Shown here piece by piece: positions 18,969 to 37,600 of a stretch of 64,000 nucleotides of DNA. The translations under genes were made by a program, and so were the position numbers. The notes beneath the pieces are model-generated. The model saw only the letters and a program-made list of their open reading frames with translations. It had not been told where the DNA came from and searched no databases. The DNA is from an uncultured Elusimicrobia bacterium. GTDB lineage: Bacteria; Elusimicrobiota; Elusimicrobia; 2-01-FULL-59-12. How positions within the stretch are numbered: the stretch's first letter is position 1; the number at the start of each line of letters is the position of its first letter. The stretch is taken from the NCBI GenBank assembly GCA_963702895.1, contig OY969767.1:1-64000 (forward strand), read 5' to 3'.

Positions 18969-18969
18969 G

Positions 18970-21258
18970 CTAGGCCGCCTTCATAAAGGGGTGCTTGTTG
19001 GGAGGGCGAAGCCATGCGAGCAGCGACTGCATTTCCTGCATTTGCTGCCGGATGGCGGTGAGCGCCTTTGCGGCTTCGGCGCTGGCTTGCACCGCGCCTG
19101 AGGCAGCCGCCTCTTGGCTGGCCGCTGTCATGGCCTCGGTGTTCAGTTGCTGGGCCTCCACAAGGGTTTTCTCCCAGCGCGCCTGGGCTTCGGCCCACTG
19201 TTTTTCTTGTTCCGCCCAAGCTTTTTCCTTTTCGGCCCAGGCTTCATCGCGCTCGTTGCGCTCCGCCTGGAGTTGGGCGACGGTGTTCTTCCATTCCACT
19301 TGTGCGCGCATCATCGCTTCCATGTCGCGGCGCAGCGCGGCGAGCTCTTTTTCCGTTTGGGTTTTATACAGCACGAGCTCATTCTTCTCCTCGCGCAAGG
19401 CTTCAAGCTCTTCTTCCTTGTTCTTGATGACGCCTTCATGATTGAGGATCATGCCTTCCTGGTTCTGAATGACATCCTCCTGATCCTGAATGACCCCTTG
19501 CTGCTTTTGGATGACCCCTTGTTGGTTTTGGATGAGCTCCTGTTGGGATTGCGCCTCGGTTTGAAAGTTCTTCAGGCTTGCGAGCTCCATCTCCAATTGG
19601 GTTTTCCCTTCTTGAGCGGACGCCAGGCTCTTCGTGAGGTCATTCAGACGGTCTTCCAGGTTGGAGTCCAGCATCTGCAGTTCTGCGATGCGCTGGAGAT
19701 ATTGCCTGTTTTGCCGCTCACGCTCGGACTGCTCTTCTTGGAACCTGGCGGTGGCGAGTTCTTGCTCTTGGAGGAGCGATTCCAGGCGTTGGCGGTCTGA
19801 CGTTTTCGTCGCTTCTTCTTCTTTCTGGAGCGTCTGAATCCGTTCTTGGAGGAGTTGGATTTCCTGTTCCGCCTGCTGGCGGTCGCTCTCCATTTTGGCG
19901 GCGATGGCCTTTTGAGCTTCCAGCGCCTGGCCCAGTTGAGCCTTCAATTGCTGCACCACCGGCTGATGCTCCTGTTCCCACTTCGTCTTTTCTGCGTCGA
20001 GTCGCCTCTCATAGGTTTCGGGTAAATGATGGAGCGCCTCTTCACGCATTTCATGACGGACCTTTTCGATTTGCTGACGCAGCGACGCACGTTCGGCTTC
20101 CAGCCGCCCGGCTTCTTCTCCCTTGTTCTGAACGGCCTTCCGGAGAGATTCGTTCTCCGTCCTGACCTGAGAGATCGTGCTTTCCCAATAGTCGGTTCTT
20201 TCTTCTTCGCGCCGCGTGAAATCGCGCTTGATCTGCTCCTCCATCCGCTTCAAGTCAGCGCGATGACGCTCCTGTTCCTGTTGCCGCTGGGATTCTGAAA
20301 TCTGAAGTTGATTTTGGAGCATCGCCACCTGGGCCTTGATGGCCCCCGCTTCCCGGACCTGCGCGTCGAGTTCGCTCTGCAGCGCGCGAAGCTCGGCGGA
20401 TTTCTCTTTTTCCAAGGACCGCCGCTGTTCGGCCGCCTCTTCGCGCAAGCGATCCTGGGCCTCTTCCTTTTCTTCTTGGGCTGACTTAAAGTGTTCCGCG
20501 TCCAGTTCCATCTGGCGCTTCGCCTGCGCGAGCTCCTCTTCTTTTTTGCGGAGCGTGTGGGTCCACTGCGTTTTCTCCTCCTGATAGCGCTCTTCGACTT
20601 CCCGGAGTCGGCGCGAGAGGTTCTTTTCGACATCCTGTTCAATGAGTTCTCGTTCCTTCAGCTGATTCTTCAAGGCCATCATCCAGGACGCGCGCTCTTC
20701 CGTGAGCCGCCGCTCGAGCTCCTTGGTCTGATTTTCCGCTCGCGAGCGAGATTCCTGAAGGTCCTGCTCATGTTTTTCCCGCCGGAGTTTGTCTTGCATC
20801 TCACGAAGCTGAGTCTCGACGCGCGAGGACAGGGCTTCTTCTTCCTTGGCCCGAAGGCTTTGGAGCAGCACTTTTTCCTGTTCATCCTTCAGCTGTTTGC
20901 GTAACTCCTCCAGTTGGGTCTCCATGGTTTTCTTGTTCTTCTCCTGGTCCTCAAAGCGCTTTTCCATCTCCTGCAGGCGTTGCTCGAACGCTGATGGGCC
21001 CGTTCCTGGCAAGGCCGGAAGCCCGGCAACGGGCGCAGAAGGCACAGGCGATGCCGGACGCGCGAGGGGCGTGGGCATGGAAACCGGAATCGACGCAGGG
21101 GCCCCCAAAGGCGCAGGCGTCATAGGGCCCGGAGGGACCCCCAGCTGCGGTGGAAGCACATTCCCGGCTGAGCCCCCTGCTCCCATGCGCGGTGGCGGAG
21201 GTGGCACGGGTTTGTGTGCCGACGGCGGCGGTGGTGGAACGGAATAGTTATCAGCCAT
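18970..21258 (-). CDS. Long coiled-coil protein with Pro-rich N-terminus (762 aa)
   Basis: About 90 Pro-rich residues, then continuous E/Q/K/R-rich helix. No ATPase motif. Confidence 0.85.
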   Translation of the reverse strand: MADNYSVPPPPPSAHKPVPPPPPRMGAGGSAGNVLPPQLGVPPGPMTPAPLGAPASIPVSMPTPLARPASPVPSAPVAGLPALPGTGPSAFEQRLQEMEKRFEDQEKNKKTMETQLEELRKQLKDEQEKVLLQSLRAKEEEALSSRVETQLREMQDKLRREKHEQDLQESRSRAENQTKELERRLTEERASWMMALKNQLKERELIEQDVEKNLSRRLREVEERYQEEKTQWTHTLRKKEEELAQAKRQMELDAEHFKSAQEEKEEAQDRLREEAAEQRRSLEKEKSAELRALQSELDAQVREAGAIKAQVAMLQNQLQISESQRQQEQERHRADLKRMEEQIKRDFTRREEERTDYWESTISQVRTENESLRKAVQNKGEEAGRLEAERASLRQQIEKVRHEMREEALHHLPETYERRLDAEKTKWEQEHQPVVQQLKAQLGQALEAQKAIAAKMESDRQQAEQEIQLLQERIQTLQKEEEATKTSDRQRLESLLQEQELATARFQEEQSERERQNRQYLQRIAELQMLDSNLEDRLNDLTKSLASAQEGKTQLEMELASLKNFQTEAQSQQELIQNQQGVIQKQQGVIQDQEDVIQNQEGMILNHEGVIKNKEEELEALREEKNELVLYKTQTEKELAALRRDMEAMMRAQVEWKNTVAQLQAERNERDEAWAEKEKAWAEQEKQWAEAQARWEKTLVEAQQLNTEAMTAASQEAAASGAVQASAEAAKALTAIRQQMQEMQSLLAWLRPPNKHPFMKAA
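19420..19545 (-). repeat. 21-bp (7-aa) tandem repeat inside the coiled-coil gene
   Basis: QELIQNQ QGVIQKQ QGVIQDQ EDVIQNQ EGMILNH EGVIKNK. Confidence 0.8.
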
Positions 21259-21269
21259 GGGAATTCTCC

Positions 21270-24200
21270 TTAGGAAGCCTTTCTTTCATCGATAGAAGCC
21301 TGAAGTCGATCCACCCAGTTTGCCAATTGTGAATTGTTAGGGTCCAGCTCTTTGGCCAGCGCCGCGATCGTCATCGCCTTGGCCATGTCGCCCTGGGCGT
21401 AATACGTCAGCGCCAAATATTGGTAGGCCGCCCCCCAGCGGGGGTCCTTTTGCACACATTTCTCGAAGGCCCGCGCAGCCGCGTCCCACTGTTGGGACTG
21501 GTAGGACGTCACACCTTCTTCAAAAGCGTTCCAAGTCGCGGCGCTGGAGATCCCCTGCTTGTTGGGAGAGCGCTGGCCTCTTTGGCGAAGCCCTTCCATG
21601 GTCTTGCGCAAAGATTCCGCCTGCTCTTTGGCGCTCTCGCGGAGCAGGTCCATCTCACGACTCCGGGCCTCAAGCGTCTCGCGCAGGGCCTGGGTTTTCT
21701 GCTCGCCATCCGCCAAGAGCGTCTCGTAATGTTCTTGCAGGCTTTCCCGCTCGGCGCTGATGCGGCGAAGGTTCTCCTCTAAAGCGCGCTTTTGATGTTC
21801 CATCGTTTGCACGATCTCAGAGGACCCCACCATTTCCTCTTTGCGGAGCTCGGTGTGGCGGAAAGTCAAGTCGCTCAGCTCCTGGCGCCGTTCCCGGAGT
21901 TGTTTTTCGAGGTCCGTTTTTTCCGCCTCGTAGCGCGTTCGGGCGCTCGCGGTTTCCTGACCGAGCTGCTGGCGCAGCTTGTCGAGCTCTTCGGCGCGCC
22001 GCTTTTGCTCATCCCGAAGCCGCTTCTCCCTTAGGACCAGGCGCGCTTTAAGCATCTTGAGCTCATCCTCTTTGGCGTGGATGCGCGTTTCCCAGCTGCT
22101 GCGCTCTGCTTCCAGGTCACTCGTCAGATGCCCCAAGCGATCCTCCAGGGGACGCCGATCTCGCTCCATCTGGGCCTGGAGCCGCTGCTTGTGGGTCTCC
22201 ATACTGGCTTCCTGGAAGGTGATATCCATCTTGAGCTTCGCCATGGCTTCATCGGTTTGGCGCAGCTCCGCTTGGAAGCGGTTTTGCATACTCACGAGCT
22301 CATGTTCTAAATGGGCTTTTTCCTGCTGGAGCGCCTGCTTATCGGTCTGCCATTGTTCGAGGGTGGCCTGCCATTCGCTTTCGGCCTTCTTTTCCTGGCT
22401 GCGAACGGCTTCTGAGGAACGGGTCATTTCTTCATCGCGCTCTTGGAGGCGCTTCTCAGAGGCCTGGACGAGTTCCTCTAATTCCTTCTCTTGTTTGCGA
22501 ATGCGGACGGCCAGGTCCTGGCGTTCCTGGTGGGACGCCCTCTCAAACTCTTCGGTATCGTTTTTGATCTGAGCTTCACAGCGCGCGAGCTCCTGGCGCA
22601 GGGCACTCAGCTGGTCGGCCTTTTCCTTGCGAAGGGCCTCCCAATGATCCTGGGCCTGGCTGACATGGAGCTTCAATTGTTCCGTTTGCGCACGCAGGGT
22701 GTCATTGGTCCCGCGCCAGGAGGCCACTTTCTGATTGAATTCCTCCCCCAGGGCTTTGAGGTGCTCTTTGGAGCGCGCGAGTATCCCCTGCAGCTCCTGC
22801 TCTTTGGCCGCGAGCGCCGCTTCTTGAGATTGACGCGTATCCTGAATGCGCTTCTGCAGAGCGGCCAGATTCGTCGCCATGGCCTGCTTCTGCGCTTCAA
22901 AGACCGAGTTCTTCTGGGCGATCTCCTGGTCCCGCTGGGCCTTGAGGCGCAGGATCTCATTTTCGAGTGCCGCGATCTCCTTTTGTCTGGTTGCGAGCTG
23001 TCGCTCCGAAACCTCCTTGCGGTCCTTGAGCTTCCACTCCAGTTCCTCCTTGGCTTTTTCCAGCTGGAATCGTTCTTCCGCAAATTGTTTCGCGAGGCGG
23101 TCCAGCTCGCCCTGTCGCTCCGACTCCTTGCCCAAAAGGTTCGCCTGCAAAGCGGCAATCTCCGAATCGCGTTCCGCCAGTTTCTTGGCCCATTCTTCTT
23201 GCGTCAACGCGAGCGTCTTCTGGAGAGCGACCTCTTTTTGCTTGCCGCGACGTTCATAGGCCGACAGGGCCTTCTCAAAACGGTCGAGCGTCCGCTGGTG
23301 CTTTTTCTGGGCTTCCGAGAGCTGCTGCTGAAGTCCCGCGATGACCCCCTCGCGCTCTTGGATCTGCTGCGGCTGAAGCGCCTCTATCGATTGGATCTCT
23401 TGCTCGATGTGCCGAATGATGTCTTGGAGAGTCCGGGACTTGAGCGTCGCTTGGTGAAGCAGTTCACGCCGCTGCGTTTCATGCGCCACGGCTTGGGCGC
23501 GAATTCGTTCTTCCAGATCTTGGATCTGCTTGGACTTTTCTTCGTCGGCATCTTGGGCCGAGCGCAGGACCCCCTCCCGCTCGGAAGCCAAGGACTCCAG
23601 ACGCGCCTTCCACTGGGCACGCTCGTCCCTGATGCGGGCCTCCAGAGCAGCCTTGTCCAAGCGCTCCTTTTCCGCCAGTTGACTCAGATGCGCCTGAGCC
23701 TCCTCTTGCTCCTGATGCAGCTGCTTCATCTGTTGCTCGTGGCCTAAGCGTTCTTGTGCGAGCGCTTCTTCGACCGCCAACTTCGTTTCCTCGAGGGGTT
23801 TGAGATCAGCGGCAAAACGTTGTCCTTCCTGCGCGAGCATCGCGACCTGTTGGGCCTCCTGCTTGTGGAGTTCCTCTTGGAGCGCCAGGCTCTCTTTTTC
23901 CTTCTTCTCGATCTCCTCCTGCCAGTGTGTCCGGATCCGGTCTGTTTCGGCTTGCGCGGAGGTGATCTGCTTTTCAATCTGCGACCGCTCCGCGTCTAAA
24001 ATCTGTTCTTTCACGCGCAGGTTCGAGGCAATCTCTTTATGCTTGAGCTCCAGGCCCTGTCGCAGGGACGCCAGTTGTGACGCGTTGGACTGAATGACGG
24101 CCCGCGCTTCTTCCCTGGCCCGGGCCAAATCGGCTTCGAGCGCCGCGGTGCGCGCTTTGATGCTTTCAGACTCTTTCTGCGCGGACTGTTTCTTCTCGTG

Positions 24201-26099
24201 CAAGGCCTCCTCGAGTTCTTTGGGAAGGGTTTGCAGGCGTGTCGCGAAACTCGCGCGTTCTTTTTCTTTGCTTTGCAGGAGGCCCTGGATCCTGGTTTCC
24301 TCATCCTTCTTCATGGTCAGGAAAGCTTCTAAGGCCAGGCGGCGTTCCTCGACGCGCTTCTGAAGGCGATCTCTCATTTCCTGGGACCGCTGCAGGAGCG
24401 CCTCTTCTTTTTGGCGGTGATCGTCTTCCAGCGCCTGAATGACAGCCAACTGGTCCTTTTGCGCTTTCTCGCTGCTCTCTTTGGTCCGAGCCAGGTCCCG
24501 TTCGACGGCGCGCAGTCTGATTTTGACCGCGTCCATCTCGCGTCCCAGTGTTTCTTCCTGCGTCTCATAACGCTTGCGCAGTTCCGCTTCCTGAGGACCG
24601 ACGGCCTCTTTGGCCTCCTTAAGCGCTTGGTCGCGAAGACGGAGCTCGTCCTGCCACCGGAGCTTGGCCGTCTCGAGCTCACGCTCGGCGTTCGTCTTCT
24701 GCTCTTCGAGGGACTGGATCTGGGCCTGCAGGGACGCGTTTTCGGCCTCGTTCTTCTCTTTCAGTTCCGTTTGGTGCTGTTGATGAGACATCACGAGCGA
24801 GGTCTGTTCAGACCTGAGTTTTTCCAAGATGTCCGAGCGGCGGGCCTGCTCCTGTTGATAGCGGGCCAGGAGCGTCTGGTGCTCTTGGCACAAAGACTCT
24901 TTTTCTGCGGTGATCACGGACAGACGCGTCTGCAGATCGACTTCCATGGAGCGCAGTTTCGTGTGAATGTCGTCCTTGAGACTTGCGATCTCCTGTTCTT
25001 TGGCTTCCATGGACCTCTGCCAGCGGCTTTGCTCTTCCTGCATCTGGTGCTGCAGGCTGTGCGTTTGCGCTGTGAGGCTCGCGACAGCCTCCTGAAAAGC
25101 TTTTTGGATCTGATCCAGCTGTCCCTTGGCTTCACTTTCCGTGAGAAGCATTTTGACTTTGAGCTGCTGGATCTGTTCATCCCGCTGGCGGGTCAATTCT
25201 TCCCAGTTCTGCGACTCCTTGCTGATATGCGCTTTGAGCGAGGATAGTTTTTCCTGGGCCCTTTGCTGGCGAAGAGAGATCTCATGCAGGCGGCGTTCCT
25301 GCTCAAGCTGCCAGACGGACTGTTTTTCCTGAAAGGTGGTGTGCAGGCGCAGGCGCTCCTGTTCTTTGGTTTTCACCGCTTCTTCCCAGGCTTTGCGTTT
25401 GTCCGCCCACTGCCGCTCGAGTTCTTTGATGCGCGTCTGCCACAATTCCATCGCGGCCGCATGCTGCGCCTGGCGCTGCTTCAAATCATGTTCAAGAGCG
25501 GTCTCGCGCCGCAGAAGGTCTTGTTTGAGACTGGCGAGTTCCGTTTCTTTGGCCTGAAGCAAATCCTGCCACTTCTTTCTTTCTTCAAGGAGTTTGGATT
25601 CCTGTTCTTTCAGGACCGCTTCGGCCCGATCGGCCGCTTCCTTTTCGGCCTCCTCCGCCTGCGTCAAGGCCGCCTTTGTTTTCTGTTGCTCCGTTTCGCT
25701 CTGTGTGTGGGATTCCTGGACGATCTTTTCCCTTTCCTTGAGCGTTTTCTCCCACTGCTTCATGTCGTCCTGAAGCCGGCGTTCGAAATATCGGATTTCC
25801 CTGTCCGCGTCCTGCTGAAGAAGCTGCAAAGCCTGCCCTTGCGCTTCGCGCGTGGTGCGTGTTGAAATATCGATTTTCCCCAGCGTCCCGCGAAGGGCCA
25901 GGATCTCGTTTTCAAGCGCCTGAAGCTTTGCTTCGCCTTCCGACTTTTCTTTGCTGATGAGTCGGCCGAGCTCTTCCAGGGTGGGGCTTTTCTCAGGCGG
26001 TTTTTGGGGAAGCGGCGGTATTTCGGCCCGTTTTGGGTCCGGGGGCGGCGCGCCGGAATCTTTTTTTATAATCGATCGAAAATGGTCAGACAGTGACAT
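21270..26099 (-). CDS. Very long coiled-coil protein with 61-residue repeats and a C-terminal TPR (1609 aa)
   Basis: W-x3-hydrophobic-x2-[KR][ED] motif recurs at 61-residue spacing. TPR-like end (FEEGVTSY..AARAFEKC..AYQYLALTYY). Confidence 0.88.
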   Translation of the reverse strand: MSLSDHFRSIIKKDSGAPPPDPKRAEIPPLPQKPPEKSPTLEELGRLISKEKSEGEAKLQALENEILALRGTLGKIDISTRTTREAQGQALQLLQQDADREIRYFERRLQDDMKQWEKTLKEREKIVQESHTQSETEQQKTKAALTQAEEAEKEAADRAEAVLKEQESKLLEERKKWQDLLQAKETELASLKQDLLRRETALEHDLKQRQAQHAAAMELWQTRIKELERQWADKRKAWEEAVKTKEQERLRLHTTFQEKQSVWQLEQERRLHEISLRQQRAQEKLSSLKAHISKESQNWEELTRQRDEQIQQLKVKMLLTESEAKGQLDQIQKAFQEAVASLTAQTHSLQHQMQEEQSRWQRSMEAKEQEIASLKDDIHTKLRSMEVDLQTRLSVITAEKESLCQEHQTLLARYQQEQARRSDILEKLRSEQTSLVMSHQQHQTELKEKNEAENASLQAQIQSLEEQKTNAERELETAKLRWQDELRLRDQALKEAKEAVGPQEAELRKRYETQEETLGREMDAVKIRLRAVERDLARTKESSEKAQKDQLAVIQALEDDHRQKEEALLQRSQEMRDRLQKRVEERRLALEAFLTMKKDEETRIQGLLQSKEKERASFATRLQTLPKELEEALHEKKQSAQKESESIKARTAALEADLARAREEARAVIQSNASQLASLRQGLELKHKEIASNLRVKEQILDAERSQIEKQITSAQAETDRIRTHWQEEIEKKEKESLALQEELHKQEAQQVAMLAQEGQRFAADLKPLEETKLAVEEALAQERLGHEQQMKQLHQEQEEAQAHLSQLAEKERLDKAALEARIRDERAQWKARLESLASEREGVLRSAQDADEEKSKQIQDLEERIRAQAVAHETQRRELLHQATLKSRTLQDIIRHIEQEIQSIEALQPQQIQEREGVIAGLQQQLSEAQKKHQRTLDRFEKALSAYERRGKQKEVALQKTLALTQEEWAKKLAERDSEIAALQANLLGKESERQGELDRLAKQFAEERFQLEKAKEELEWKLKDRKEVSERQLATRQKEIAALENEILRLKAQRDQEIAQKNSVFEAQKQAMATNLAALQKRIQDTRQSQEAALAAKEQELQGILARSKEHLKALGEEFNQKVASWRGTNDTLRAQTEQLKLHVSQAQDHWEALRKEKADQLSALRQELARCEAQIKNDTEEFERASHQERQDLAVRIRKQEKELEELVQASEKRLQERDEEMTRSSEAVRSQEKKAESEWQATLEQWQTDKQALQQEKAHLEHELVSMQNRFQAELRQTDEAMAKLKMDITFQEASMETHKQRLQAQMERDRRPLEDRLGHLTSDLEAERSSWETRIHAKEDELKMLKARLVLREKRLRDEQKRRAEELDKLRQQLGQETASARTRYEAEKTDLEKQLRERRQELSDLTFRHTELRKEEMVGSSEIVQTMEHQKRALEENLRRISAERESLQEHYETLLADGEQKTQALRETLEARSREMDLLRESAKEQAESLRKTMEGLRQRGQRSPNKQGISSAATWNAFEEGVTSYQSQQWDAAARAFEKCVQKDPRWGAAYQYLALTYYAQGDMAKAMTIAALAKELDPNNSQLANWVDRLQASIDERKAS

Positions 26100-26111
26100 G
26101 GGCGTGGTATG

Positions 26112-26139
26112 AGTTTAGGGCGAAAAGACAGCGTTTCAA
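26112..26139 (-). promoter_or_regulatory. Sigma70-like promoter for the coiled-coil operon
   Basis: TTGAAA (26139-26134), 16 bp, TAAACT (26117-26112), 12 nt before the ATG. Confidence 0.5.
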
Positions 26140-26280
26140 GCTTTTATTTACGGCCACCTGGCGTTGATCGCAAGAAACAAAAACGCACCTATATAACAAT
26201 ACGTTCTTGCGGGTGACTTTCTTCTCAATCTGATCGTGGGGATGGGTTAGGGGCCGGCTCATGATGTCTTCCTTATATAG

Positions 26281-27912
26281 CTACTCCGGACGCAGCTGTT
26301 TCATGAACTCTGGGATTTCCTTGTCGCCTGGGTCGATCTCGAGGACTTTGGACCAGAGTTTACGCGCGCGTGTGTGGTCATCGAGGAGGAAGAACGCCGA
26401 TCCCATGATTTTCAATGACGTTAAATCATTTGGATTAAAGTCCAGAATGTCCTGGCATTTCTTGATGGCGACATCATAGCGGCCCTCCAGGATCGCCTGC
26501 CTTGCGTCAAAGACCTTTTGATCGATGGGCGAGAAGAGTTCAGGACCTTTCGGAGGATCCGTTTTGTCCATGTTCGCTTCCGCCTCAATCTTGTTCAACA
26601 GAGACAAGAGTTTGTCGTTCTTGGGGTCTTTGTAGTAAGCCTGCCGCAGCGAGGCGACCGTCCCTTTCACATCATTGTTGGCGTAATAAAGGAGAGCCTT
26701 TCGGGTCATTTGCGCCGACTCCTCTTGTCCCATCGAGCTGGGCACGGTTGCCACCACTTTCTGGAATCTTTCCGCGAGGGTCTGGACATGCTTATTGGTG
26801 GGGTCGGCATCCAGCGCCGCCTGGAGTTGTTCCTGCACCATCAGATAATTGCCCTTTTGCGCGGCGCCAAACGCCTTTTGGACCATCTGGTTGACATTCT
26901 CCTCACGGCGCTCCAGGACCGATCGGCCGAACTTCCAGGAGACGCCCATGCGTGTCGAGCTGCCCAAGGCATGAAGTCCAATCGAGTAATCCAGAGTGAC
27001 CGATTTGATGGTGTAGCCAAATCCAACGTCCGTTTCCCGGATGCCTTCACCGAGGCCTCCTTGCACGCCAAAGCGGCCCTTAAAGCGTTTAGAAAAACCA
27101 AATTCGCCGCCCATGTGCCATCCGAGACTGGCGCGCGCGCTCTTGTCGATATCAAAGGCAAGGAGCAGGCGCTTTTTAAAGAACTGATCCGATACGCCAA
27201 ACCGAAACATGAGCGGCATGACGTCTTCGGTATCCCCGGAGACTTTCGCGTAGACGTTTTTCATCACCAGGCCCAGCCGCCTTCGCCCTTCTTTCATGTC
27301 GATCAGGGCGCCCAAGTCCGCGGTTAAGGAGGAGTCCGAGGACGTGTCCACGCTTCGAGAGAGTTTGTTCAAGGCTGTTCCGATCGAAACACGATCGACC
27401 ACCTTACGGCCATACGACCAGCTCAGGGCCGACTCTTCGACAGCGAAGTTTCCTGCCGTGTTGTAGCTTGTGTATTGCTGGGTGGTGGAATCATACGTGG
27501 CGGTGACTTTCTCAAAGCCGGCGCTCGCCAGCTTTGCCATGCTCAGACCCCAGGCGCTTCCCCCCTTTTTCGAGGGCTTGACGAAGGCGTAGTAGTCAAG
27601 AGTTGTGTCCGCGAAGAGTGTGGCTTTCATCAGCGTCAGTTCCTTGCGAGTCAGCTGGGAAAGACCGGCGGGGTTCCAGTACCCGGCGCTCGCGTCATCG
27701 GCCACACCGACGAAAGCAGCTCCCATGGCGAGGGACCTTGCGCCGGCGCCGTAGGAGAGCCATTGGCCAGGCTGACCGCCTGTGCCCGCGGCTTGGAGGG
27801 AAGACAGAGGAAGGAGAAGGGAGACAGCCACAAGAAACGCGAAAGCATTCCCTGTGCTTCCAGAGAATGAATGCGAAACCGCACGTTGGATCCGGACGAG
27901 TCGGTTCGTCAT
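26281..27912 (-). CDS. PorV/PorQ (FadL-like) outer-membrane beta-barrel protein with C-terminal TPR domains
   Basis: Signal-like segment, then GARSLAMGAAFVGVADDASAGYWNPAGL, amphipathic beta strands and a helical TPR tail. Start set to ATG 27912, just downstream of the riboswitch. Confidence 0.85.
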   Translation of the reverse strand: MTNRLVRIQRAVSHSFSGSTGNAFAFLVAVSLLLPLSSLQAAGTGGQPGQWLSYGAGARSLAMGAAFVGVADDASAGYWNPAGLSQLTRKELTLMKATLFADTTLDYYAFVKPSKKGGSAWGLSMAKLASAGFEKVTATYDSTTQQYTSYNTAGNFAVEESALSWSYGRKVVDRVSIGTALNKLSRSVDTSSDSSLTADLGALIDMKEGRRRLGLVMKNVYAKVSGDTEDVMPLMFRFGVSDQFFKKRLLLAFDIDKSARASLGWHMGGEFGFSKRFKGRFGVQGGLGEGIRETDVGFGYTIKSVTLDYSIGLHALGSSTRMGVSWKFGRSVLERREENVNQMVQKAFGAAQKGNYLMVQEQLQAALDADPTNKHVQTLAERFQKVVATVPSSMGQEESAQMTRKALLYYANNDVKGTVASLRQAYYKDPKNDKLLSLLNKIEAEANMDKTDPPKGPELFSPIDQKVFDARQAILEGRYDVAIKKCQDILDFNPNDLTSLKIMGSAFFLLDDHTRARKLWSKVLEIDPGDKEIPEFMKQLRPE

Positions 27913-27918
27913 GTCTTC

Positions 27919-28078
27919 TTTCGGTAACCCCGCTAGCCTCGATGTTCTGGGCGGCCCGGAGTCCGCCACACTTCTGGCGGACGATGCATTCGCATCGGCT
28001 TTGCGTCCCCGTCTTACGACGCACGCCACACTTCTGGCGCGTCCGCCGGTCTTCTGGCGGAGGTTTGCCTTTGTCGCT
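27919..28078 (-). ncRNA. c-di-GMP-I (GEMM) riboswitch interrupted by two hairpin-pair insertions
   Basis: Minus strand reads GGCAAACC[40 nt]CGTC-GTAA-GACG-GG-GACGCAAAGCC[36 nt]TCCGG-GCC..GGC-TAGCGGGGTTACCGAA. This matches the class-I consensus once 28022-28061 and 27961-27996 are removed. Confidence 0.85.
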
Positions 28079-28127
28079 TTTTGGCCCCGTCTCCCCGAGA
28101 GTCCGAGGAGAACTATGCTACGGTCTG

Positions 28128-28155
28128 AGTATAAGGAAACGACACGTTATTGCCA
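28128..28155 (-). promoter_or_regulatory. Candidate promoter for the riboswitch/porV-like transcript
   Basis: TGGCAA (28155-28150), 16 bp, TATACT (28133-28128). Confidence 0.4.
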
Positions 28156-28348: not shown

Positions 28349-31300
28349 TTAGTGGATAACACCAATCTTGCGGATGACGGTCGACGATCCTTTGGCTCCT
28401 CCCACCTTAATTTGTGCGAGGTAACCACCTTTGGCGACTTTCTGGCCGGATTCATTCGTGCCATCCCATCCTTCAGGAGGAACCGTGTTCGGGCCCTGTT
28501 GGCCGCCCGGAGAGCCTGAGGGGAAGCTCCAGCTGATGACACGGTAACCCAAGAGATCGTAGACGACGATATCCACCTGGGCGTCGGAGGCGAGCAGATA
28601 AGTAATAAAGGTCCGGCCTTCCACCCCGCCCTTGCGTGTATCGACCGGGTTGGGATAATTCGACACTTCCGAAATGATTTCTTGCGGAAGGCCTGTGTCA
28701 ATCGTCGTCGAGAGTGTGGACCATTCGCTCGTCGAGCCCGCGCGATTGATGGATTGGATCTGATAGCGGTAGAAGTGGCCTGCCGCGCGAGCAGCGCCCG
28801 TCTCACCGTTTAAGAATTGCAGCGGGCTTGTGGTCCCCAGGGAGGCCATCGGGGCGGCTCCAATGCGAGAAGGCGCGCCGCCCACCTGCCCGCTGCCGAA
28901 GGTGAAACTCGGCGTGGAGGTCTGCAGGATTTCGACCGGCACAGGGTTGTTGTCGGTGAACTGGCGCACGCGATAACCGAAGAGACCGGAGGGCCCCACC
29001 GTTTCCGACGGTGTCCACTGGACCGTGATGACACCTGAAAGAGCGGAGACAGGGAGATTCAAGAACGACCCTGGCGGCTCAGGTTTGCTGACGTCCACAT
29101 GGACCACGCCGACTTTGACGGGCGAAGGCGGAAGGGCCAGTCCATTGATGGTCGCCAGCGTTCGGACGTGGAAGTAATAGATGGCGCCGTCTGAGAGCCC
29201 AAGCCCCGTGAGGGTCAAGGGCGGCGGCGAGGCAAAGTTCACCCAACCGGTCAGCGTCGGAGAAATCGAGGTGCTGCTGGAGGCGCTCACGCCCACTTGA
29301 TAGGAAATGGAAACGTTCGACGGCAGCGGTGTCGAAACCGTCAGGTACCAATCCGCCCTGACTTGGTCCTGTCGATTGACCCAGGCATCCGGGAAGAACG
29401 TTCCCTGCAGCGGTGAAGTGGGATCCGTCGTGAGGTCGGGCCGCATCGTGATCGTGGCGATCTGGATCGTCTGGAAGTTGTAAATTTCGACGAGATTGCT
29501 TCCCAAGGGGTAGACGTTCAGCGGGTCCTGGAGCGCTGTGGAAGGCTGCATCGAGATGGCGGAAGAAGAGCTGATTTCCAAGCCGGCGCGGTGTCCTTGC
29601 GTGGAGGTGGTCGATCCATCGACCGTGTTCATATCGGCGGCGATGAGCAGCGTGCCACCCGACGTATTGAAGGTGACGGGCGAACTCAGCGGAATGATAG
29701 CCGTTCCGCCCAAGAACTGCCCGGGGGCCGTGCCCCAGTTGAGGGAGCCGACCAGGGGGTCCGTCGCGTCGATCTGGGTGTTGAAGTTGGTGTCCCAATA
29801 CACGTAGAGCTTGGAGAAGTCGCCGTCACCGACGACATTGGGCGGTGTGCCAAGGGAATATTGAATGGTTCCCGTTTGCGTGAGCGTCAAGGTCGACAGG
29901 ATAACCTGGTTGATGCTGGGTGTCACCGTGAGGCTCAAGATCGGCACGCGCGACTCGCCCTGCAAAGCCGACTGCGGGGCGAGCGAGGCGGCGCTCACGC
30001 GAACGAGCAGCGGACTGATGGAGATCTGCCGTGAATCGTGCGGGAGATTTCCCGCATCGACCGTGTCCACGCCCGCCGGCACAAAGGACCCGCCAAACCA
30101 GCCGGGATCTTGGATGCTCACGCCCTCGCTGTTGTTGGAGGTGGCGCTGGTCGCGATGTCGTAGGCAATAAAGTAAGTTTGTCCCGTGGGGTTAATGACT
30201 TCAGGTTTATAGAGAGAGAGCGTCGTCGTCTTGGCCGCGGTCCCATTCGGGTCTGGCGTGACATAGGTCCCGGTCGCCAGGAGAACGTCCACCGCGGGGT
30301 CCAGGAGGCCGTTAAAGTTCGCGTCACGATAAAGTTTGATCGCCGCGATGTCCTCATTGGAGCCCTGGGTCTGGATCGCGCCCTGGCCGATGCGCGCGAC
30401 TTTCAGGGTCTTGAGCGTCACAAAGGCGACGGGTGTCTTCAGTGAGAATTTGAGGACCGGCACGTTGCTATCGCCCTGTGTGGCGGAGACCGGGGCGATC
30501 GTATTGTCCGGAGTGAAGGTGACCGTGTCGGCATATTCCGTGATGGAAGACAGCCGCGTGACGAGGGGCGGCGTATTGGCGAGCACCACGATCTTGGGCG
30601 ACACGACGCTAAAAGCCGCTGCGCCAGGGATGGATGCCCCCACGGTCACTTCTTCTCCCGTGTCCTGCGCGCCATCGTTATCGAGATCGCGGTAGGGGGG
30701 AGCGAAGGGATTGATGTCATAGGCCACAAAATAATTCACCCCTGTAAACTTATCGCCAACGTTCGGGACCACCTGCGGCGTGACAAAGGTCATGGTGGTC
30801 CAATTCGATGAGAAATTGTTCGTGCCGTTGGTGACCAGTCCCGGTTTCACGAGGCTGTCGGCGACAAGTGTATCGTTGAGCACGCCGTAGAGGCTTCGCC
30901 CCATGGTATGCGCGGAGGCCGTGGTGCCAAGGAAGCCGCGGGTGAGCCCGGTGAACTTATTCACCCCGTCGTTGGCATCAAACTTAATCAGTTCATTATC
31001 GATGAAGAGCACACCCGGACCTGCCGGGAAAGCGGTGGAAACCACCACCTGAAGACTGTTGTCGGAGGCGGTGATGTTGCTCAGCAAGGTGCTGCGCGGT
31101 GTGGGATTGCCGTCATCAAAGAGGCCGTTGTCGTTGATGTCCTTCCAGAGGTCCACATGCACGACATCCGCGTCGTCCGGGTTGAGTCCTGTCCGCTGGA
31201 CGCTCAGGGACTGCCACAGGACCGTGTTGTTGCTGGCCTTCACATTCACTTTGGCGACGGGCACATTCTGCTGGTTCTGCTGGACCGATGTGGCCAGGAG

Positions 31301-31648
31301 GTCCGTGAAGGTCACCGTCATCGAGTCGACCGTGGCGCCGATGATGTGAGACCCCGTCTGGATCGGGAAGTTTGCGGGGCTGATGCTGTGGATGCCGTCT
31401 CCTGCGGTGAGAGCGCCCACAATCAAGGAGTCCTTGGCCAGCGCGTTGATCGCGAAGACGTCATTGGCCGTCGCCGATGGATTGATATCAGCGGTCACGT
31501 AGAACACACGCGGGGTCGTGCTGACGAGGACGTAACCCGGAGAACCGGCGGCAGGATCGTTGACTGTGATACGCGAGCTGCCGAACTGCATCACGCCGGA
31601 CCCCAGCAAGGTATTGTTGATGCCGACATCCCCCGCGGCCGTGCGCAC
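28349..31648 (-). CDS. C-terminal part of the giant surface protein: Ca-binding-like beta-sandwich modules, FN3-like domains and a T9SS type-A/FlgD-Ig-like terminal domain
   Basis: Same module types as the end of the upstream ORF. No signal peptide. Ends with SNYPNP..ITYLL..VYDLLG..WDGTNESGQKVAKGGY..RKIGVIH. Confidence 0.85.
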   Translation of the reverse strand: MRTAAGDVGINNTLLGSGVMQFGSSRITVNDPAAGSPGYVLVSTTPRVFYVTADINPSATANDVFAINALAKDSLIVGALTAGDGIHSISPANFPIQTGSHIIGATVDSMTVTFTDLLATSVQQNQQNVPVAKVNVKASNNTVLWQSLSVQRTGLNPDDADVVHVDLWKDINDNGLFDDGNPTPRSTLLSNITASDNSLQVVVSTAFPAGPGVLFIDNELIKFDANDGVNKFTGLTRGFLGTTASAHTMGRSLYGVLNDTLVADSLVKPGLVTNGTNNFSSNWTTMTFVTPQVVPNVGDKFTGVNYFVAYDINPFAPPYRDLDNDGAQDTGEEVTVGASIPGAAAFSVVSPKIVVLANTPPLVTRLSSITEYADTVTFTPDNTIAPVSATQGDSNVPVLKFSLKTPVAFVTLKTLKVARIGQGAIQTQGSNEDIAAIKLYRDANFNGLLDPAVDVLLATGTYVTPDPNGTAAKTTTLSLYKPEVINPTGQTYFIAYDIATSATSNNSEGVSIQDPGWFGGSFVPAGVDTVDAGNLPHDSRQISISPLLVRVSAASLAPQSALQGESRVPILSLTVTPSINQVILSTLTLTQTGTIQYSLGTPPNVVGDGDFSKLYVYWDTNFNTQIDATDPLVGSLNWGTAPGQFLGGTAIIPLSSPVTFNTSGGTLLIAADMNTVDGSTTSTQGHRAGLEISSSSAISMQPSTALQDPLNVYPLGSNLVEIYNFQTIQIATITMRPDLTTDPTSPLQGTFFPDAWVNRQDQVRADWYLTVSTPLPSNVSISYQVGVSASSSTSISPTLTGWVNFASPPPLTLTGLGLSDGAIYYFHVRTLATINGLALPPSPVKVGVVHVDVSKPEPPGSFLNLPVSALSGVITVQWTPSETVGPSGLFGYRVRQFTDNNPVPVEILQTSTPSFTFGSGQVGGAPSRIGAAPMASLGTTSPLQFLNGETGAARAAGHFYRYQIQSINRAGSTSEWSTLSTTIDTGLPQEIISEVSNYPNPVDTRKGGVEGRTFITYLLASDAQVDIVVYDLLGYRVISWSFPSGSPGGQQGPNTVPPEGWDGTNESGQKVAKGGYLAQIKVGGAKGSSTVIRKIGVIH

Positions 31649-34600
31649 AAAGGATCCCCGCTGTAGACCTTGAGACTGCTCAAGTCGGAATCAGCGCCCG
31701 TCATGCCGCCCGGGACGGCCCTGCCGAGATCGAGCGAGAACCAGCGGATGTTGAAGTTGGTCTCATCGTAGAGGGTGAGTTTCATCACGGCGACATTGCG
31801 CATGCCCTGCGTATAGCTCACGCCCACATAGTTGGGCGCCTCCACATTGTTGATGAGAGTGAAGGTGGAGTGGCTGGGCGGGCTCAAGGGGTCACAGCTG
31901 CTCGTGACGCAGCGCGCGACCGTATTGAGGACATTGGCGGTGATGCTCTGATAGGAGATCGCCTCGCCATCGATCACGAGCATCCCCGACGACGGAAGCC
32001 CGTTGGTGGTGTCGAGCGTCACAGAGTTATCGGCCGGCTGGATGGGGGCCAGGAGGCGCGGAAGAGGATAGCTGCCTGTGTCATTCGAGAAGTAATATTC
32101 CTTGTCGACGTGCAGGGTCTGCGGGCTGGGGATAATGGTGCGCAGCTTGGAGGCCGCGGGGATGTTCGTACTGGAGGAGACATTGGGTGCTGAGACGCCG
32201 ATATAGGTGGCGGATGTGACGGAAACGCCAAGCGTCATTTGAGGATTGGCTAAGGTGGCAATATCAAAGGTCACAAAATAGTTGTTTAAGTTGCGGGCTT
32301 GCGTATCAATTTTGAGCGGACCGGTGGTCAAATCGTTCAGGTCCGAGCTGTACGTGGTCGTATCGAAAACGATCTTGGCAAGCCCCGCGGCCGGATTTCC
32401 GAAGACGCCTGTGCCGATGGGCGGCGCGTCAGCGACCGCGTTAAAGAGCCCGGTCCCCAGCTTGTCGACCCAGATCTTGATCCTGGCCACATCCGCGTCG
32501 CTGGAGGTCCCCGTACGGGCAAAAGTTATATTCTGCAGAGCGGCCCGGGCTTTGTCGGTCTTCAGGCTGAAGCGCATGATCACTTGATTGGTGCTCCCCT
32601 GCTGCAAGGAATCCGGTGTGATCGTGATCGGAACGTCCGTCGAGGTCAAGACCACATAGTCGGCGTACTCGAGGATGTTCGAGATATAGGAGACCGATTG
32701 TCCCCCGACGGAAGGCAGCCCAATATTTCCGGAATAGTTCCCAACGGTCTTGGGAGCTTCCACGACGAAGTACGTGGTGGAACGAATTTCGGCGCCGAGC
32801 GAAGCGACCGTATTGACCTGCGCCAATTCGTTGATGTCATAGGTGAGGAAATAGACCTCGGGCGTGGCGCCGAGCGCCTGGCCGCTCAGGAAGCCCTGCG
32901 GGTCGATGATGGACATGTAGGCCTGTCCTTCGACGACGCTCCCAACCAGATGCGATGAGATCGTTGTGCCATCGATGCCGCGCGTGACCCCGGTGAGCTC
33001 GTTGTTCGTCGCGTCAAGTCCTGCGTAGGTCATCATTTCGCTCCCAATATTGAAGCGGCCCGGAGCGGGTGGGAATACAAAGGCGTTGGACACATGCACG
33101 ATATCCGTCGAAAGGTCCACGCTTTGGGTGAGGACCGCTTGTGCAAAAGTGTTGGTTTGGTTCGAGTTCGTCACTTGGATGTCGGTGGCCACATCGAAGA
33201 TGCCGTTGCTGTTGCTGTCGAGATAGAGTCGGATGGCCTCCACGTCCCGCGCCTTGTTGAGCCCGTTGGGATTGCCTCGGTCCAGACGCAGGTGCGTGAG
33301 AATCGCCGTATTGACGACGCCGCCACCGGAGGGGTTTCTCGCCTGCAGGGTCATTTTCATGATCGGTACGTTTTGATTGCCTTGGGTGGCGACGGCCGGG
33401 ACCGAGAAGCCGCCCGCGGGGTCGTTGACGCGCGACAGGTCCAACTGATCGTTGGAGGGGTTCACCGTGATGGTGGAGGAATTGATTTGCGCAAACGACG
33501 CGACCTGTCCATCGGTCGGGAAGATGTCCGACGGACCGCGCACGCTCATCCCCTGGCTGGCCTGCACGGCCGCGGGGCTGATGTCATACGTCAGGAAGAC
33601 GTAGCTGGTGGTGGGCGTGACGATGAGATTCGAGGTCAAAGTCACCGTCGATTCCTGATTGACGAAAGGTGTCACGCCCGAAATCAGCGCGTCGATCGAA
33701 GACTCGAGCGTTCCGTTGCCGTTGACGTCCTGGTAAATCTTGACCCCCGTGATATCAAAATCGTTGCCGGTGCCGGAGCGCGTCACGCGGATCTTGTTGA
33801 CCACGCCCTGGAAGGCATCGGTCCACATCGCCAGCCGCAAGAAGCCCGCCGCCGTTACGCCCTGAATTAAGTTGTTTTGCTGAGCAAGACCCGAGCCGGG
33901 GTTCCACCAAGCGGCGATGTCTTGCCCCTGGACGCGGATATTCGCGGGCTGGCGAACCACGGGTGAGGTGCTGGTCAGCATTTGGAAGTTATTGCTCGCC
34001 ACGCCCAGCCCTGAGACCGTGATCTGGGTCGGATCGGTGATTTTAAGTCCCAGGTTGGCGGGCAGCGGGGTGACGGTGGAGCTCGAGATACGTACGGCCA
34101 CGAAGAGGTTTTTCTGCTGAATGGCGGTCACGGTCAGATTAAGGTTGGAGAAGGTGGCGACACCGCTCACAAACGTCGCCGTGGTCAAGACCTGATCATA
34201 CGTCGGCAGGCCGCCATAAGAGGTTTCGGGATCCATGACGCCGTCACCGTTGGCATCATAAACCAGCTCCAGCTCCGAGATATCGGAATCACCCAGAACT
34301 CCAGACACGGTTTGTTTGGCCACACGGATCTGCGAGACGACGGTGCTTGAGGAATACGTGGGCGGCAAGAGCGCTAAACTCAGGCGTATCATGGGGACCG
34401 GGATAAAGTCGGTGGGCAAGCTCCCGTTTCCTTGGGCAATGCTCGTCTTGCCTTGCCACGGTGTGCCGACCAGGGCCAATTGTTTGGCGGCGTAGGTCGG
34501 GTGTGCCGGGGAAACGGGAGCTAGGTCGACGGGTGTGACCACAATCCCGGCTGTCACGACATCGCCAAGAGAATTCACCGGGATGGTCCGTGCGATATCG

Positions 34601-37600
34601 TTTGTCCAGCCGCGGACCAGGGTCTCCGACGAATCGAAGGAGTTGTTGCCGGGGACCAACGCCGGCACCGGCGTCGCGTAGTCGGTGGCCCTCACTTGCA
34701 GGGTCTCCTGGATGCTGTCGCTGATGAGAAGATTGCCGTAGACGCCGCGATCGGCGAGCGTAAAGGTGTAGGTGCTAATCGGCGTCGCGGGCGCGGAGGC
34801 GTCCGCCAGGAAGACCGTGTCCGTGGAACCGCTCGTCGTGAAATGAATGCTTCCGGTGTAGTATTGGCCGTTCTTCGGGTCGCCTGTGGCGACGTTCCCG
34901 AATTGGTCGCGCGCCGAGAAGGTGCCGAAAGGCAAGAGCGTGTTCACAGGGAGCGGCGTTGCCGCGACATGCGCGGTCTCAATGGTGATATACGATGCCG
35001 GCGCTGGAGAGATAAAGTGGGTGATGCGGGCGTCCGCCAGGACGTTCGCGTTGTCGTGGGCGACCATCGTGTGCGTCCCCTGGATCATGTCGTAGTAATA
35101 CATGCTGACTTGGGAGGAACCGCTGGTGAGCGGCACCGGCAGCACACTCGGAGCGCCTCCCGAAATATTGACGAAGGTATTCAGGTTGGCCGGGCTGATG
35201 CCACCGCGGGCGCCGCTGGAAGGCAGCGTGGAGGTCGCGTTATCGATATAGAACGCGATGACGGTGTTGCTCGAGACGGGCGAGACATTGCCGAACGCGT
35301 CTCTCGTCTGCGCCGTGATGACCGTCGTGGTCGGAGCGCCCACGAGGTAATTGGGCTCGTACTGGACCGTGGTGCCTGCAATCAGGTAGCGCGATGGCGT
35401 GATGAAGGCCAGCTGGCTGGGCGGTGCGGCCTGGACCGTGTAAGTTGAGGTCGCCGAGCCCCATCCGGAGCCCGACTTGGACACGGTCACTTGATGATTG
35501 CCCGCGAGCGTATCCACCATATAAAAGGTTGTTGTGCTTTGGCCTACAGCAAGAAGCGCCGTGCCCGTCCCCGAGCTATAGGAACTCGTGCTGTAGGGTG
35601 TCATGAATTTGAGAGTGCCGGTCGAACTGGAGGACAGGTCGAAAGCCGCCGTGGGCCCGCCAAAATCTCCGGTTAAAATCGGTGAGGGGTTGCCGTAAAT
35701 GTCCTGCGTGGCCATGGTGAAGACTTGGCTCGTCGTCCCCGCGACGAGCGTCGAGGGCGCCGTCAAGAAGCCGAGGTTATAGATGGAGCTAGGAACAATG
35801 TTGACCGGCTGGGAAGCCGTGCTCCACGACACGCCATTCACCCACGCGGAAATCCGTGGACTTGAAGAAGGAACAGCGTAATTCACACTGGCATGGGTGT
35901 CCAGATAGTAGAAGGTCGCGCCCCAAAGTCCGGAGTTAATGACGATCGAGGTCGTCGAGGCCTGGAAGCCAGGCGCTGTAGGAGGTGGCGGTGGCAGGAT
36001 CGCGGTCGACGCCGAAAAGCCGTACGCGTCAAAAGAAGAAGACGCCACGCGGTTGCTGAGGAGCTGAACGGTCATGGAGGAAGCCGTCGGTGTGGGGTTC
36101 CCGTAGGTGTCCTGCATTTGTACATTAAACGCGGAGAGGTTGAGGTCTCCCGTCGGATGCAGTGGAAGTCCCGCCTGGAGGGTCCTGGCGGGCGTGTGGA
36201 AGGCCATTTTGGCCGTAACACCAGGATTTACGATCAGGTTGTACGGTATGCGGATATTGGCGTTGCTGTAGCTTGATCCCACATACGCCTGGAGGATCCA
36301 CGTGCCCAGTCGTCCATCTTCCTGTGGGGTCGAGGACATCTTGTCAAAATAGACAAACGATTTTTGAGATTCCCCGCCCGTGAAGCTCACACCCGAGATC
36401 GGCGTTCCCCCTGCTGTCTGGAATTCAAAGTCATGGCTGGACGACGAAAAGCCACGGCCGGCATGCGTCGCGACTTGGCTGTTCGCCGAGTAATCCAGCG
36501 AGACATTGAGGTTCGCGAGGGTCGTGGGGTTGTCAAAGTCGTCGCGGCGCTCCATCACAAAGGGCGTCAGGGACGAAGCGAGCGTCCCGGCGGTTTGTGA
36601 GACAGGCGCGGAGAGATACGCCAGCTTGCTCGTCGTACCGCCGGTGGTGGTCATGCGCCCGGAGGTGTTCGAAACCAAGAGCGCGCCGACGGTCGCGGAG
36701 AACCGAACTTGGGATGAATCTCCTGCTTTGGATGAGACGTAGTAATAGAGTCCCGAGGAGACGCCGATGGTGCCGCTCGAGTCGGTGACAACGCTGCCGA
36801 TGGGAACAGGCGGTGTCGAGGAGGAGGCGGTCACGCTCGCGGAAAGGGTCCCCGTAGCGCCGACCACGCCAAAGGTGGAAAGGGTCACCACGATGCCGGC
36901 GCTTGAAGCGTAGTTGTTATAGGAGTCCGCGAGCTTGGCAAAGATCGGGTAGCTTCCCAAGGAGCTTAAGGACCCTGCGGGGACATTCACGTCCGCGGCC
37001 GGGCCCACCACAAACTGCGAGGGGTCACCCGCGGTGATGGTTAAGTAGGGTCGTGTCGAGTACACCACGCCACCACTTCCCCATCCCCTCTCGGAGGTGA
37101 TGTTGATGGGGTCGGAGGTGTCATAAGCCTTGATCCAGCGACTCCCGGCCGCGTACAGAGAGAAATAGTTCGTCAGGCAAATTTGTCCCGCGCCCGAGAT
37201 GAGGTTATAGTTTGTCGTCCCGGGCAACCAAGCGGGATTCTGGGCCGAATCCGTAAGTCCGCCGTTCGAGGTTGTTTGCGCGTCAAAGGAAATCGAGGTC
37301 TGCGTCACCGGGTCGGTATAGGGGCCTGTCGACATCACGTTATGGTACTGGTCATGCATGACGACGCATCCCGAGAACGGCTGCCCAGCGATGGCGGAGG
37401 CAGGATAGTTTGTGAAATGGACGTGATGCTTTTGGCCTGGGTAGACAGGAATGGCGGAACTCGTGCCCGAATTCACGCTCTGAGGCGACGTCGGTGTCGT
37501 TGAGGCTGTGATCATGAAGCTGGCCTGCGCGGAACTTGGCTTCACCGTAAAGTTGAGATACCCCTGGCCCGGCAGAAGTGAACTGGGATTGCCGGGTGAG

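Follow-up and report, generated by a model that had tools for sequence, protein, structure and literature searches.

A coiled-coil rod of 24 exact 61-residue units, conserved in Elusimicrobiota behind a c-di-GMP riboswitch, and its possible link to a flagellum-less FliG/MotAB machine

The window analyzed here, a stretch of 64,000 nucleotides comprising positions 1 to 64,000 of contig OY969767.1 (GenBank assembly GCA_963702895.1) from an uncultured Elusimicrobia bacterium, encodes on its reverse strand a long coiled-coil protein that we refer to as the rod protein. Its composition is of the coiled-coil type, with 1,091 of its 1,609 residues being E, L, Q, A, R or K. The original prediction, drawn from the letters of this stretch, proposed that the protein carries an exact 61-residue repeat of mixed heptad and hendecad character and belongs to an undescribed filament or scaffold family capped by tetratricopeptide repeats (TPRs). 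The gene and the parts of its product are arranged as follows, where indel denotes an insertion or deletion and pLDDT the predicted local distance difference test.

21270..26099, reverse strand: rod gene, an open reading frame with a product of 1,609 residues
26064..26099, reverse strand: N-terminal motif MSLSDHFRSIIK, residues 1-12, recognized by comparing the N-termini of all full-length relatives
25971..26063, reverse strand: Pro-rich variable linker, residues 13-43, among the few indel-bearing stretches
21579..25970, reverse strand: rod, residues 44-1507, 24 units of exactly 61 residues (1,464 in all), delineated by row stacking, autocorrelation and unit alignment
23370..23387, reverse strand: break in the helix at residues 905-909, as predicted by AlphaFold2 (pLDDT 84), followed by the invariant Pro910
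21546..21578, reverse strand: flexible linker between rod and TPRs, residues 1508-1518, with pLDDT below 50 (model residues 186-194) and small indels among relatives
21273..21545, reverse strand: C-terminal module of two TPR motifs and a capping helix, residues 1519-1609, with the motif GAAYQYLAL, identified with Pfam, PDB and AlphaFold2

When the protein was stacked in rows of 61 residues, a single register ran through 24 rows, from residue 44 to residue 1507, with no indel. The regular Trp spacing that had drawn attention to the protein extended well along it: ten Trp residues (116, 177, 238, 299, 360, 482, 726, 970, 1153 and 1336) fall at 116+61k, including those at 726, 970 and 1336, whose spacing had been left uncounted, and additionally Trp1153. 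These ten of the 18 rod Trp share one residue class modulo 61, for which the binomial estimate, corrected for 61 classes, is 3e-12. The six strongest lags of a BLOSUM autocorrelation were 122, 305, 244, 183, 61 and 366 (z of 10-13, compared with a maximum of 4.1 in 300 shuffles), followed by lags of 25 and 36, and the Fourier spectrum of the rod peaked at 61/17 and 61/10. The period thus covers the whole rod, 24 units, and is not confined to a few. The exactness lies in the spacing rather than in the unit sequence, as the units are only ~10-30% identical to one another.

Alignment of 120 units from five proteins with MAFFT gave 61 gap-free columns and the consensus L-E-x2-L-x2-E-R-x2-W-E-x2-L-x2-K-E-x-E-[LI]-x2-L-x3-L, with a weaker second half. 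Family-wide columns place 17 core positions in each unit at a spacing of 11-11-7-7-11-7-7, or 36 + 25 residues, which, together with the Fourier peaks, fits the predicted decomposition of 61 into 4x7 + 3x11. Twelve of these positions are strong core columns, 53-83% hydrophobic (1, 5, 12, 16, 23, 26, 30, 37, 41, 48, 55 and 59), and the five intervening ones (8, 19, 33/34, 44/45 and 52) are weak or basic. The best-kept columns of the unit are W12 (38%; aromatic or hydrophobic in 66%), K/R19 (74%), E/D20 (69%), E/D22 (57%) and L26 (62%). The repeat thus has 61/17 = 3.588 residues per turn, compared with 3.5 in a heptad repeat and 3.63 in a free helix (PMC9858780), and would be expected to form a left-handed supercoil with about one third of the usual twist, making one turn per 250-310 residues if the helix has 3.64-3.63 residues per turn.

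Structure prediction with AlphaFold2 from a 12-row alignment rendered residues 654-1020 helical throughout except for one break, at 905-909 (pLDDT 84), directly before Pro910, which corresponds to P257 of alignment A4 and is invariant in 12 of 12 sequences. In the model of residues 1325-1609, the helix extends to 1509 and is followed by a disordered nine-residue linker and five helices at a pLDDT of ~90, representing two TPRs and the cap. At 0.148 nm per residue, the calculated lengths are 9.0 nm for a unit and 217 nm for the rod, so that the rod would be ~217 nm long. A complex prediction of the C-terminal module (1447-1609) with the N-terminus (1-104), run without controls, gave a score of 0.18 (mark 0.32).

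The C-terminal module is composed of 34-residue helix-turn-helix repeats that match TPR profiles: Pfam TPR_2 was matched at residues 1526-1554 (33 bits, cut-off 27), and consensus-TPR structures in the PDB matched residues 1519-1591 by sequence, with E down to 8e-21. Searches of Pfam, NCBIfam and the sequences of all PDB chains matched the rod protein only as TPR, at residues 1519-1600, in line with the idea of an undescribed family with a TPR cap, and no full-length match to an SMC-type or other characterized family was found. An ESM Atlas search with the rod protein returned TPR clusters alone, all below 0.9 and hence of low recognition. A newer Pfam release may hold a model that touches the family. 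A literature search found nothing in print on the rod. As a separate observation, one relative, P0003, carries a precomputed match to PF27974.1.

We identified 31 distinct full-length relatives of the rod protein at 14-72% identity. A word-indexed search of 5.8 billion clusters returned five homologues of 1,617-1,621 residues, which a profile search raised to nine, two of them at ~25% identity, and GTDB contigs yielded six rod loci, all assigned to Elusimicrobiota or Elusimicrobia. Among 401 sampled Elusimicrobiota genomes, 23 contained a strong match (E <1e-40), excluding weaker profile matches that cover only the TPR; they include four of the five other members of the window genome's own family (f1) and members of about eleven further families. 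One further sampled genome carries a rod fragment only, and the rod was found in none of the 118 and none of the 89 genomes of the two largest sampled families. Every relative that could be placed taxonomically belongs to Elusimicrobiota. Moreover, a search of 1.84 billion representative proteins with a profile of the unit gave 76 matches at E <=1e-3, all of which were checked by sequence: nine were full-length family members, many were short fragments in the same phase, and, P0022 excepted, the rest were unrelated tandem-repeat coiled coils without a lag of 61. P0022, a protein of 581 residues, is itself unrelated, with nine near-identical 61-residue tandem copies (lag-61 z = 45.7) of another sequence and no TPR. 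Judged by sequence, the rod represents a new protein family restricted to the phylum Elusimicrobiota.

Outside the rod, the family retains a short N-terminal motif with the pattern M-x-[LFI]-[FS]-[DK]-[KRH]-[FLI]-[KR], which spans the first 8-12 residues (for example MSLSDHFRS, MDLFKKRK and MNIFDKIKN). In alignments A1 and A3 of the relatives, M1, D5 and K13 of the rod protein are invariant or almost so. The linker after the motif is rich in Pro or polar residues and varies in length across the family.

Within the rod, indels were absent. In 11 sequences sharing 40-72% identity, gap columns occurred only at residues 9-43, 1509-1510 and 1605-1607, with none in the 1,465 residues between. Alignment A4, which covers residues 654-1020 in 12 sequences down to 14% identity, contains 367 columns and zero gaps. 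Each homologue shows one dominant phase modulo 61, and, in 25 distinct 24-unit rods aligned with one offset each, the core columns were 71-85% hydrophobic compared with 10-18% elsewhere. Relative to the window protein, the spacing between the N-terminal anchor and the TPR differed by -11 to +3 residues in 29 rows, by +244 to +246 in seven and by +490 in one, or in 25, five and one distinct proteins after removal of duplicate fetches; the small differences fall in the linker between rod and TPR. The family therefore has rods of 24, 28 or 32 units. Unit-level alignment showed that ten N-terminal and ten C-terminal units are collinear, and that the central block of four (units 11-14 in a 24-unit rod) occurs one to three times, giving a length rule of 10 + n x 4 + 10 units, where n = 1, 2 or 3. 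As a control, we compared the proteins of CC2, the second coiled-coil gene of the cluster, from the same genomes; they ranged from 673 to 1,083 residues and their alignment is gapped in 1,006 of its 1,254 columns, and some of the open reading frames in the length comparison were cut by locus ends. We know of no other bacterial rod in which 1,464 residues keep one 61-residue register with no indel down to 14% identity and change length only by whole blocks of 244 residues.

The central, symmetric position of the duplicated block would fit antiparallel pairing of the two halves of the rod. In an antiparallel dimer or a fold-back connector with arms like those of SMC/Rad50, mirror pairing would bar indels and only a centre-symmetric block could be duplicated; the extra units copy the central four and leave ten on each side, so that mirror pairings are kept, whereas a parallel homodimer would tolerate any indel. 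Nevertheless, no ATPase head or hinge domain was matched in Pfam or NCBIfam, and the AlphaFold2 helix is continuous through the rod centre (residue 776), its sole break at 905-909 being off-centre. A mirror-conservation test for a central dyad gave r = -0.05, indicating that conservation is not mirror-symmetric, and an exact reflection about the centre does not carry the 12 strong core columns onto themselves. We consider an antiparallel arrangement improbable.

By analogy, the rod would work most like Scy/FilP and lattice rods such as myosin and tropomyosin, but it is a member of none of these families: its repeat length, terminal domains and phylum differ, and no sequence similarity was found. 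With Scy/FilP it shares the character of a very long bacterial rod whose regular non-heptad repeat mixes hendecads and heptads and comes close to the periodicity of an undistorted helix. The Scy rod, described as exceeding 1,000 residues (PMC9858780), has a repeat of 51 residues, 14 turns and 3.64 residues per turn (PMC3718342), whereas the Elusimicrobiota repeat has 61 residues, 17 turns and 3.59 residues per turn. Scy and FilP are further described as having a DivIVA-like domain at the N-terminus and cores rich in Ala (PMC9858780); in contrast, the rod protein has no DivIVA match in Pfam or NCBIfam, cores of Leu, Ile and Trp, a TPR cap, and a 12-residue N-terminal motif followed by a Pro-rich linker. 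The comparison with Scy made in the original prediction thus holds as an analogy only, as both the 51-residue, 14-turn repeat and the DivIVA-like head are absent here.

In the rods of myosin II and paramyosin, intermediate filaments and tropomyosin, a long period is superimposed on the coiled-coil pattern, and length and register are fixed by the stagger or by the number of partners. The rod resembles these in its long-range period and its conserved length and register, but it has no sequence relationship to rods of the myosin and tropomyosin type, their periods are 28/196 or ~39 rather than 61, and no charge stagger was detected in it. Intermediate filaments and crescentin have a heptad rod of ~310 residues with linkers and a stutter, unlike the 1,464-residue rod with its period of 61, for which Pfam gave no filament match. 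SMC/Rad50 proteins carry halves of an ABC ATPase head at both termini and a hinge or zinc hook in the middle; in the rod protein, no SMC_N, AAA or hinge domain was matched in Pfam, NCBIfam or PDB, and the helix is predicted to be continuous through the centre.

The genes around the rod gene in the window are as follows.

18970..21258, reverse strand: CC2, the second coiled-coil gene, with a product of 762 residues; it starts 11 nt past the rod stop, and each locus examined has a homologue next after the rod gene
26281..28029, reverse strand: outer-membrane barrel of the PorV/PorQ family with C-terminal TPRs (PorV-TPR), matching NCBIfam PorV_fam (93.6 bits, cut-off 90) and Pfam UPF0164 and kept upstream in relatives
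27920..28079, reverse strand: candidate riboswitch for cyclic di-GMP (c-di-GMP), class c-di-GMP-I, just upstream of the PorV-TPR gene (23 bits compared with a gathering threshold of 35, E 0.037 over 701 nt)
28349..31648, reverse strand: open reading frame of 1,099 residues with no Pfam match, the last 107 of which weakly match the C-terminus of proteins dependent on the type IX secretion system (T9SS; NCBIfam, E 1e-3)
31591..63801, reverse strand: giant open reading frame of 10,736 residues, with only Ig-like domains matched in Pfam (Big_13, Big_3_3)

The PorV-TPR gene lies 181 nt upstream of the rod gene and likely starts at the ATG at 27912. The window copy of the c-di-GMP-I riboswitch reaches only 23 bits, below threshold, because two of its loops carry long insertions; Rfam at its gathering threshold found no match in window positions 17000-33000, nor did Rfam match anything in the 181-nt spacer before the rod gene. 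The CC2 protein of the window has a polyproline N-terminus and a conserved coiled-coil region at ~95-260; its homologues likewise begin with polyproline runs (for example KPVPPPPP), and many CC2 relatives end in the motif [IF]W-x-WL-x-KP, with Trp-rich ends such as KIWLWLTKPVLKI or LLAWLRPP. These polyproline and Trp-rich ends could be ligands of the TPRs in the cluster. No 61-residue period was detected in CC2, and a hidden Markov model of the unit gave no CC2 match. The 1,099-residue open reading frame has counterparts of 60-72% identity in relatives, which invariably lie between the giant open reading frame and PorV-TPR, and the C-terminal 2,000 residues of the giant one are 57-72% identical in the relatives' loci, again upstream of the same cluster.

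Of the 7 loci from relatives, all 7 have the cluster headed by a c-di-GMP-I or c-di-GMP-I-GGC aptamer scoring above the gathering threshold, and two distant relatives have tandem c-di-GMP-I aptamers, both above gathering (locus L046, 12310-12703; locus L048, 13142-13582). As read from these sequences, the position of the rod in a cluster behind a c-di-GMP riboswitch is conserved. In three distant genomes (G073, G177 and G119), the gene order is PorV-TPR, a gene encoding FliG_M and FliG_C domains followed by TPRs (FliG-TPR), rod and CC2; ahead of PorV-TPR lies a gene for a protein, small or giant, that carries a Por_Secre_tail or FlgD_ig domain, and in two of the three a CHU_C protein and PorP/SprF come after CC2. 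The FliG-TPR product, hereafter the rotor protein, has 622-635 residues in these genomes and consists of FliG_M, FliG_C and a TPR tail. FliG-TPR stands directly upstream of the rod gene, in one co-oriented cluster, in 16 of the 18 rod-positive genomes outside family f1, the other two being broken by contig ends, and it occurs in 161 of the 401 sampled genomes, including all 23 that are rod-positive.

In the window genome, the rotor orthologue, a FliF-like/FliG_M/FliG_C/TPR protein that is 40% identical to that of G073, is encoded at 2.30 Mb, directly before MotA and MotB (the three genes together at 2298000-2302200; locus L042, 7033-11166). From its N-terminus, this orthologue shows a hydrophobic segment, a stretch presumed to be periplasmic, another hydrophobic segment, and then the FliG domains and TPRs. 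A second FliG_C paralogue lies beside another MotA and a PorV-like barrel at ~1.837 Mb (locus L043). The FliF, flagellin and FlhA families gave no match in this genome, a single contig with an estimated completeness of 98%, and control matches were obtained in 4 of 14 genomes. The TPR of the rod protein and the TPR tail of the rotor protein are 27% identical (E 2e-7) and have the AYQYL motif in common; furthermore, rotor tails are matched by the rod family profile with E values between 1e-11 and 1e-16, and these matches often begin ~55 residues before the TPR. Free-living Elusimicrobiota are reported to be devoid of flagellar structure genes but to retain motAB, flbD and fliG, the role of which is called unclear in the passage concerned (bioRxiv 10.1101/2022.07.08.499144). 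In comparison with the flagellar motor (FliF MS-ring, FliG, MotA5B2), the cluster is alike in that the rod gene follows a FliG_M/FliG_C gene in most lineages and shares a homologous TPR tail, and it differs in that flagellar motors contain nothing that corresponds to the rod.

The indel-free conservation, the quantization at 24, 28 and 32 units, and the c-di-GMP operon with its link to flagellum-less FliG/MotAB all go beyond what had been predicted from the window sequence. Coiled coils of exact length and long period are rare and usually point to a lattice or a measured partner, as in myosin, tropomyosin and Scy. We tentatively favor, though with somewhat less than even confidence, the explanation that the rod is a cytoplasmic scaffold, or ruler, of fixed length and 9-nm periodicity, belonging to a c-di-GMP-controlled, flagellum-less FliF-FliG/MotAB envelope machine. 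Rod chains would pair into a long, weakly supercoiled alpha-helical coiled coil with a predicted length of ~217 nm, and the strict register would be kept by packing in a staggered array or by binding of a periodic partner, as in myosin rods, intermediate filaments and tropomyosin. The TPR cap, homologous to the TPR tail of the rotor, and the N-terminal motif may anchor the rod, either on the rotor complex or on CC2. Distances would then be set in steps of ~9 nm, with totals of ~217, 253 and 289 nm. For structural biology, the rod is a naturally occurring system in which the design of mixed heptad/hendecad coiled coils can be tested, and it may provide a testable handle on the role of the flagellum-less MotAB/FliG genes in free-living Elusimicrobiota.

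Several observations weigh against the ruler. FliG-TPR adjoins the rod gene in none of the five genomes of family f1, which include the window genome, and in the five genomes checked MotA was not on the contig of the rod. Most rotor-bearing genomes have no rod (161 rotor-bearing versus 23 rod-positive of 401), and this distribution implies that the motor works without it. The likeness between the rod and rotor TPRs is modest, and TPRs easily resemble one another. A promoter-like site lies within the 181-nt gap ahead of the rod gene, which weakens the case for control of the rod itself by the riboswitch. Synteny inside the rod's own family says little, because close relatives have downstream housekeeping genes in common as well. 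The rule of blocks of four rests on two length-change events only, and a test for a 244-residue super-repeat of four units was not significant (24.4+-2.7 at lag 4 compared with 22-23 at lags 1-3). Finally, charge-stagger analysis of three rods, parallel and antiparallel, detected only intrahelical signals at i+-3/4 and no preferred lateral stagger.

Part of this evidence fits a rod that acts on its own. The original prediction inferred a filament, and an autonomous cytoskeletal filament in the manner of intermediate filaments, crescentin, FilP and Scy would form a staggered lattice that shapes or stiffens the cell, with the motor and PorV genes as merely inherited neighbors. The long amphipathic rod, its long-range period and its indel-free, conserved length all suit such a filament, as indel-free rods of long period are the signature of lattice formers such as myosin II and intermediate filaments; so do the 2.3 Mb between rotor gene and rod in the window genome and the absence of the rod from most rotor-bearing genomes. 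However, an independent filament leaves unexplained why 16 of 18 genomes outside f1 have the rotor gene immediately ahead of the rod although rod identity is only ~25%, why rod and rotor have a TPR tail in common, and why all 7 of the 7 loci have a riboswitch ahead of the operon; the lack of a preferred charge stagger likewise speaks against a lattice. We therefore rate an autonomous filament as unlikely, although it is the strongest of the alternatives to a motor-associated scaffold.

The surface proteins encoded nearby bear on where the rod resides. No signal peptide or hydrophobic segment was found in the rod protein, and its N-terminus is not hydrophobic; because it has no signal peptide, we take it to be cytoplasmic. 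If it were instead a secreted or surface fibril like the streptococcal M proteins or coiled-coil adhesins, it would be exported together with its neighbors, among which the PorV-like barrel, the protein with a weak T9SS-type C-terminal domain and the 10,736-residue Ig-domain open reading frame would fit. It has neither a signal peptide nor a T9SS C-terminal domain, and ends in a TPR. Moreover, its closest domain relative is the rotor tail, which comes after the second hydrophobic segment and the FliG domains and is read as having a cytoplasmic topology. An extracellular location is thus very improbable.

The same neighbors recall the gliding and type IX machinery of Bacteroidota, which combines PorV, PorP/SprF and SprB-type giant adhesins with a GldLM motor. 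A PorV-family barrel, Por_Secre_tail or CHU_C proteins, PorP/SprF and giant Ig-domain proteins are likewise found near the rod, but the motor here is of the MotAB/FliG type and not GldLM; to our knowledge, the Bacteroidota system has no cytoplasmic periodic rod. The rod could, as pure conjecture, serve as a track or rack, whose 24-32 equally spaced Trp-Glu and Lys-Glu-x-Glu steps are engaged by the rotor or CC2 to convert rotation into a stepwise linear drive of giant adhesins. The exact 9-nm spacing held across the phylum, c-di-GMP control, and the operon partners (a PorV-like barrel, proteins with T9SS-type C-terminal domains, PorP/SprF and giant surface proteins) would accord with such a track, as would the flagellum-less motAB/fliG genes of free-living Elusimicrobiota, which are given no assigned role in the same passage (bioRxiv 10.1101/2022.07.08.499144). 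Conversely, the rod would be cytoplasmic and the adhesins outside, and no force carrier across the envelope was found in the operon except the periplasmic ring domain of the rotor; the GldM family was not found, in a search in which the GldM control was silent too; and the rod is present in just 23 of 161 rotor-bearing genomes. A track of this kind appears improbable, slightly more so than antiparallel pairing. We hold similarly little expectation for the broader picture in which a c-di-GMP-switched FliF-FliG-TPR/MotAB motor works on a toothed rod of 24-32 steps, as a gliding-type apparatus found only in Elusimicrobiota that positions or drives adhesins with a reach set in 36-nm blocks. If the rod proved to be a motor scaffold, as favored above, or a track, it would belong to a new kind of ion-driven envelope machine.

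Two further open reading frames were recorded on the reverse strand. At 1187754-1190987 of the window genome, an open reading frame of 1,813 residues has four collinear, sub-threshold matches to surface_SprA, the T9SS translocon (best 63 bits, cut-off 200). In the window, positions 10105-13554 encode a protein of 1,149 residues with NHL beta-propeller repeats, an fn3 domain and C-terminal TPRs, which is kept downstream in the relatives' loci.

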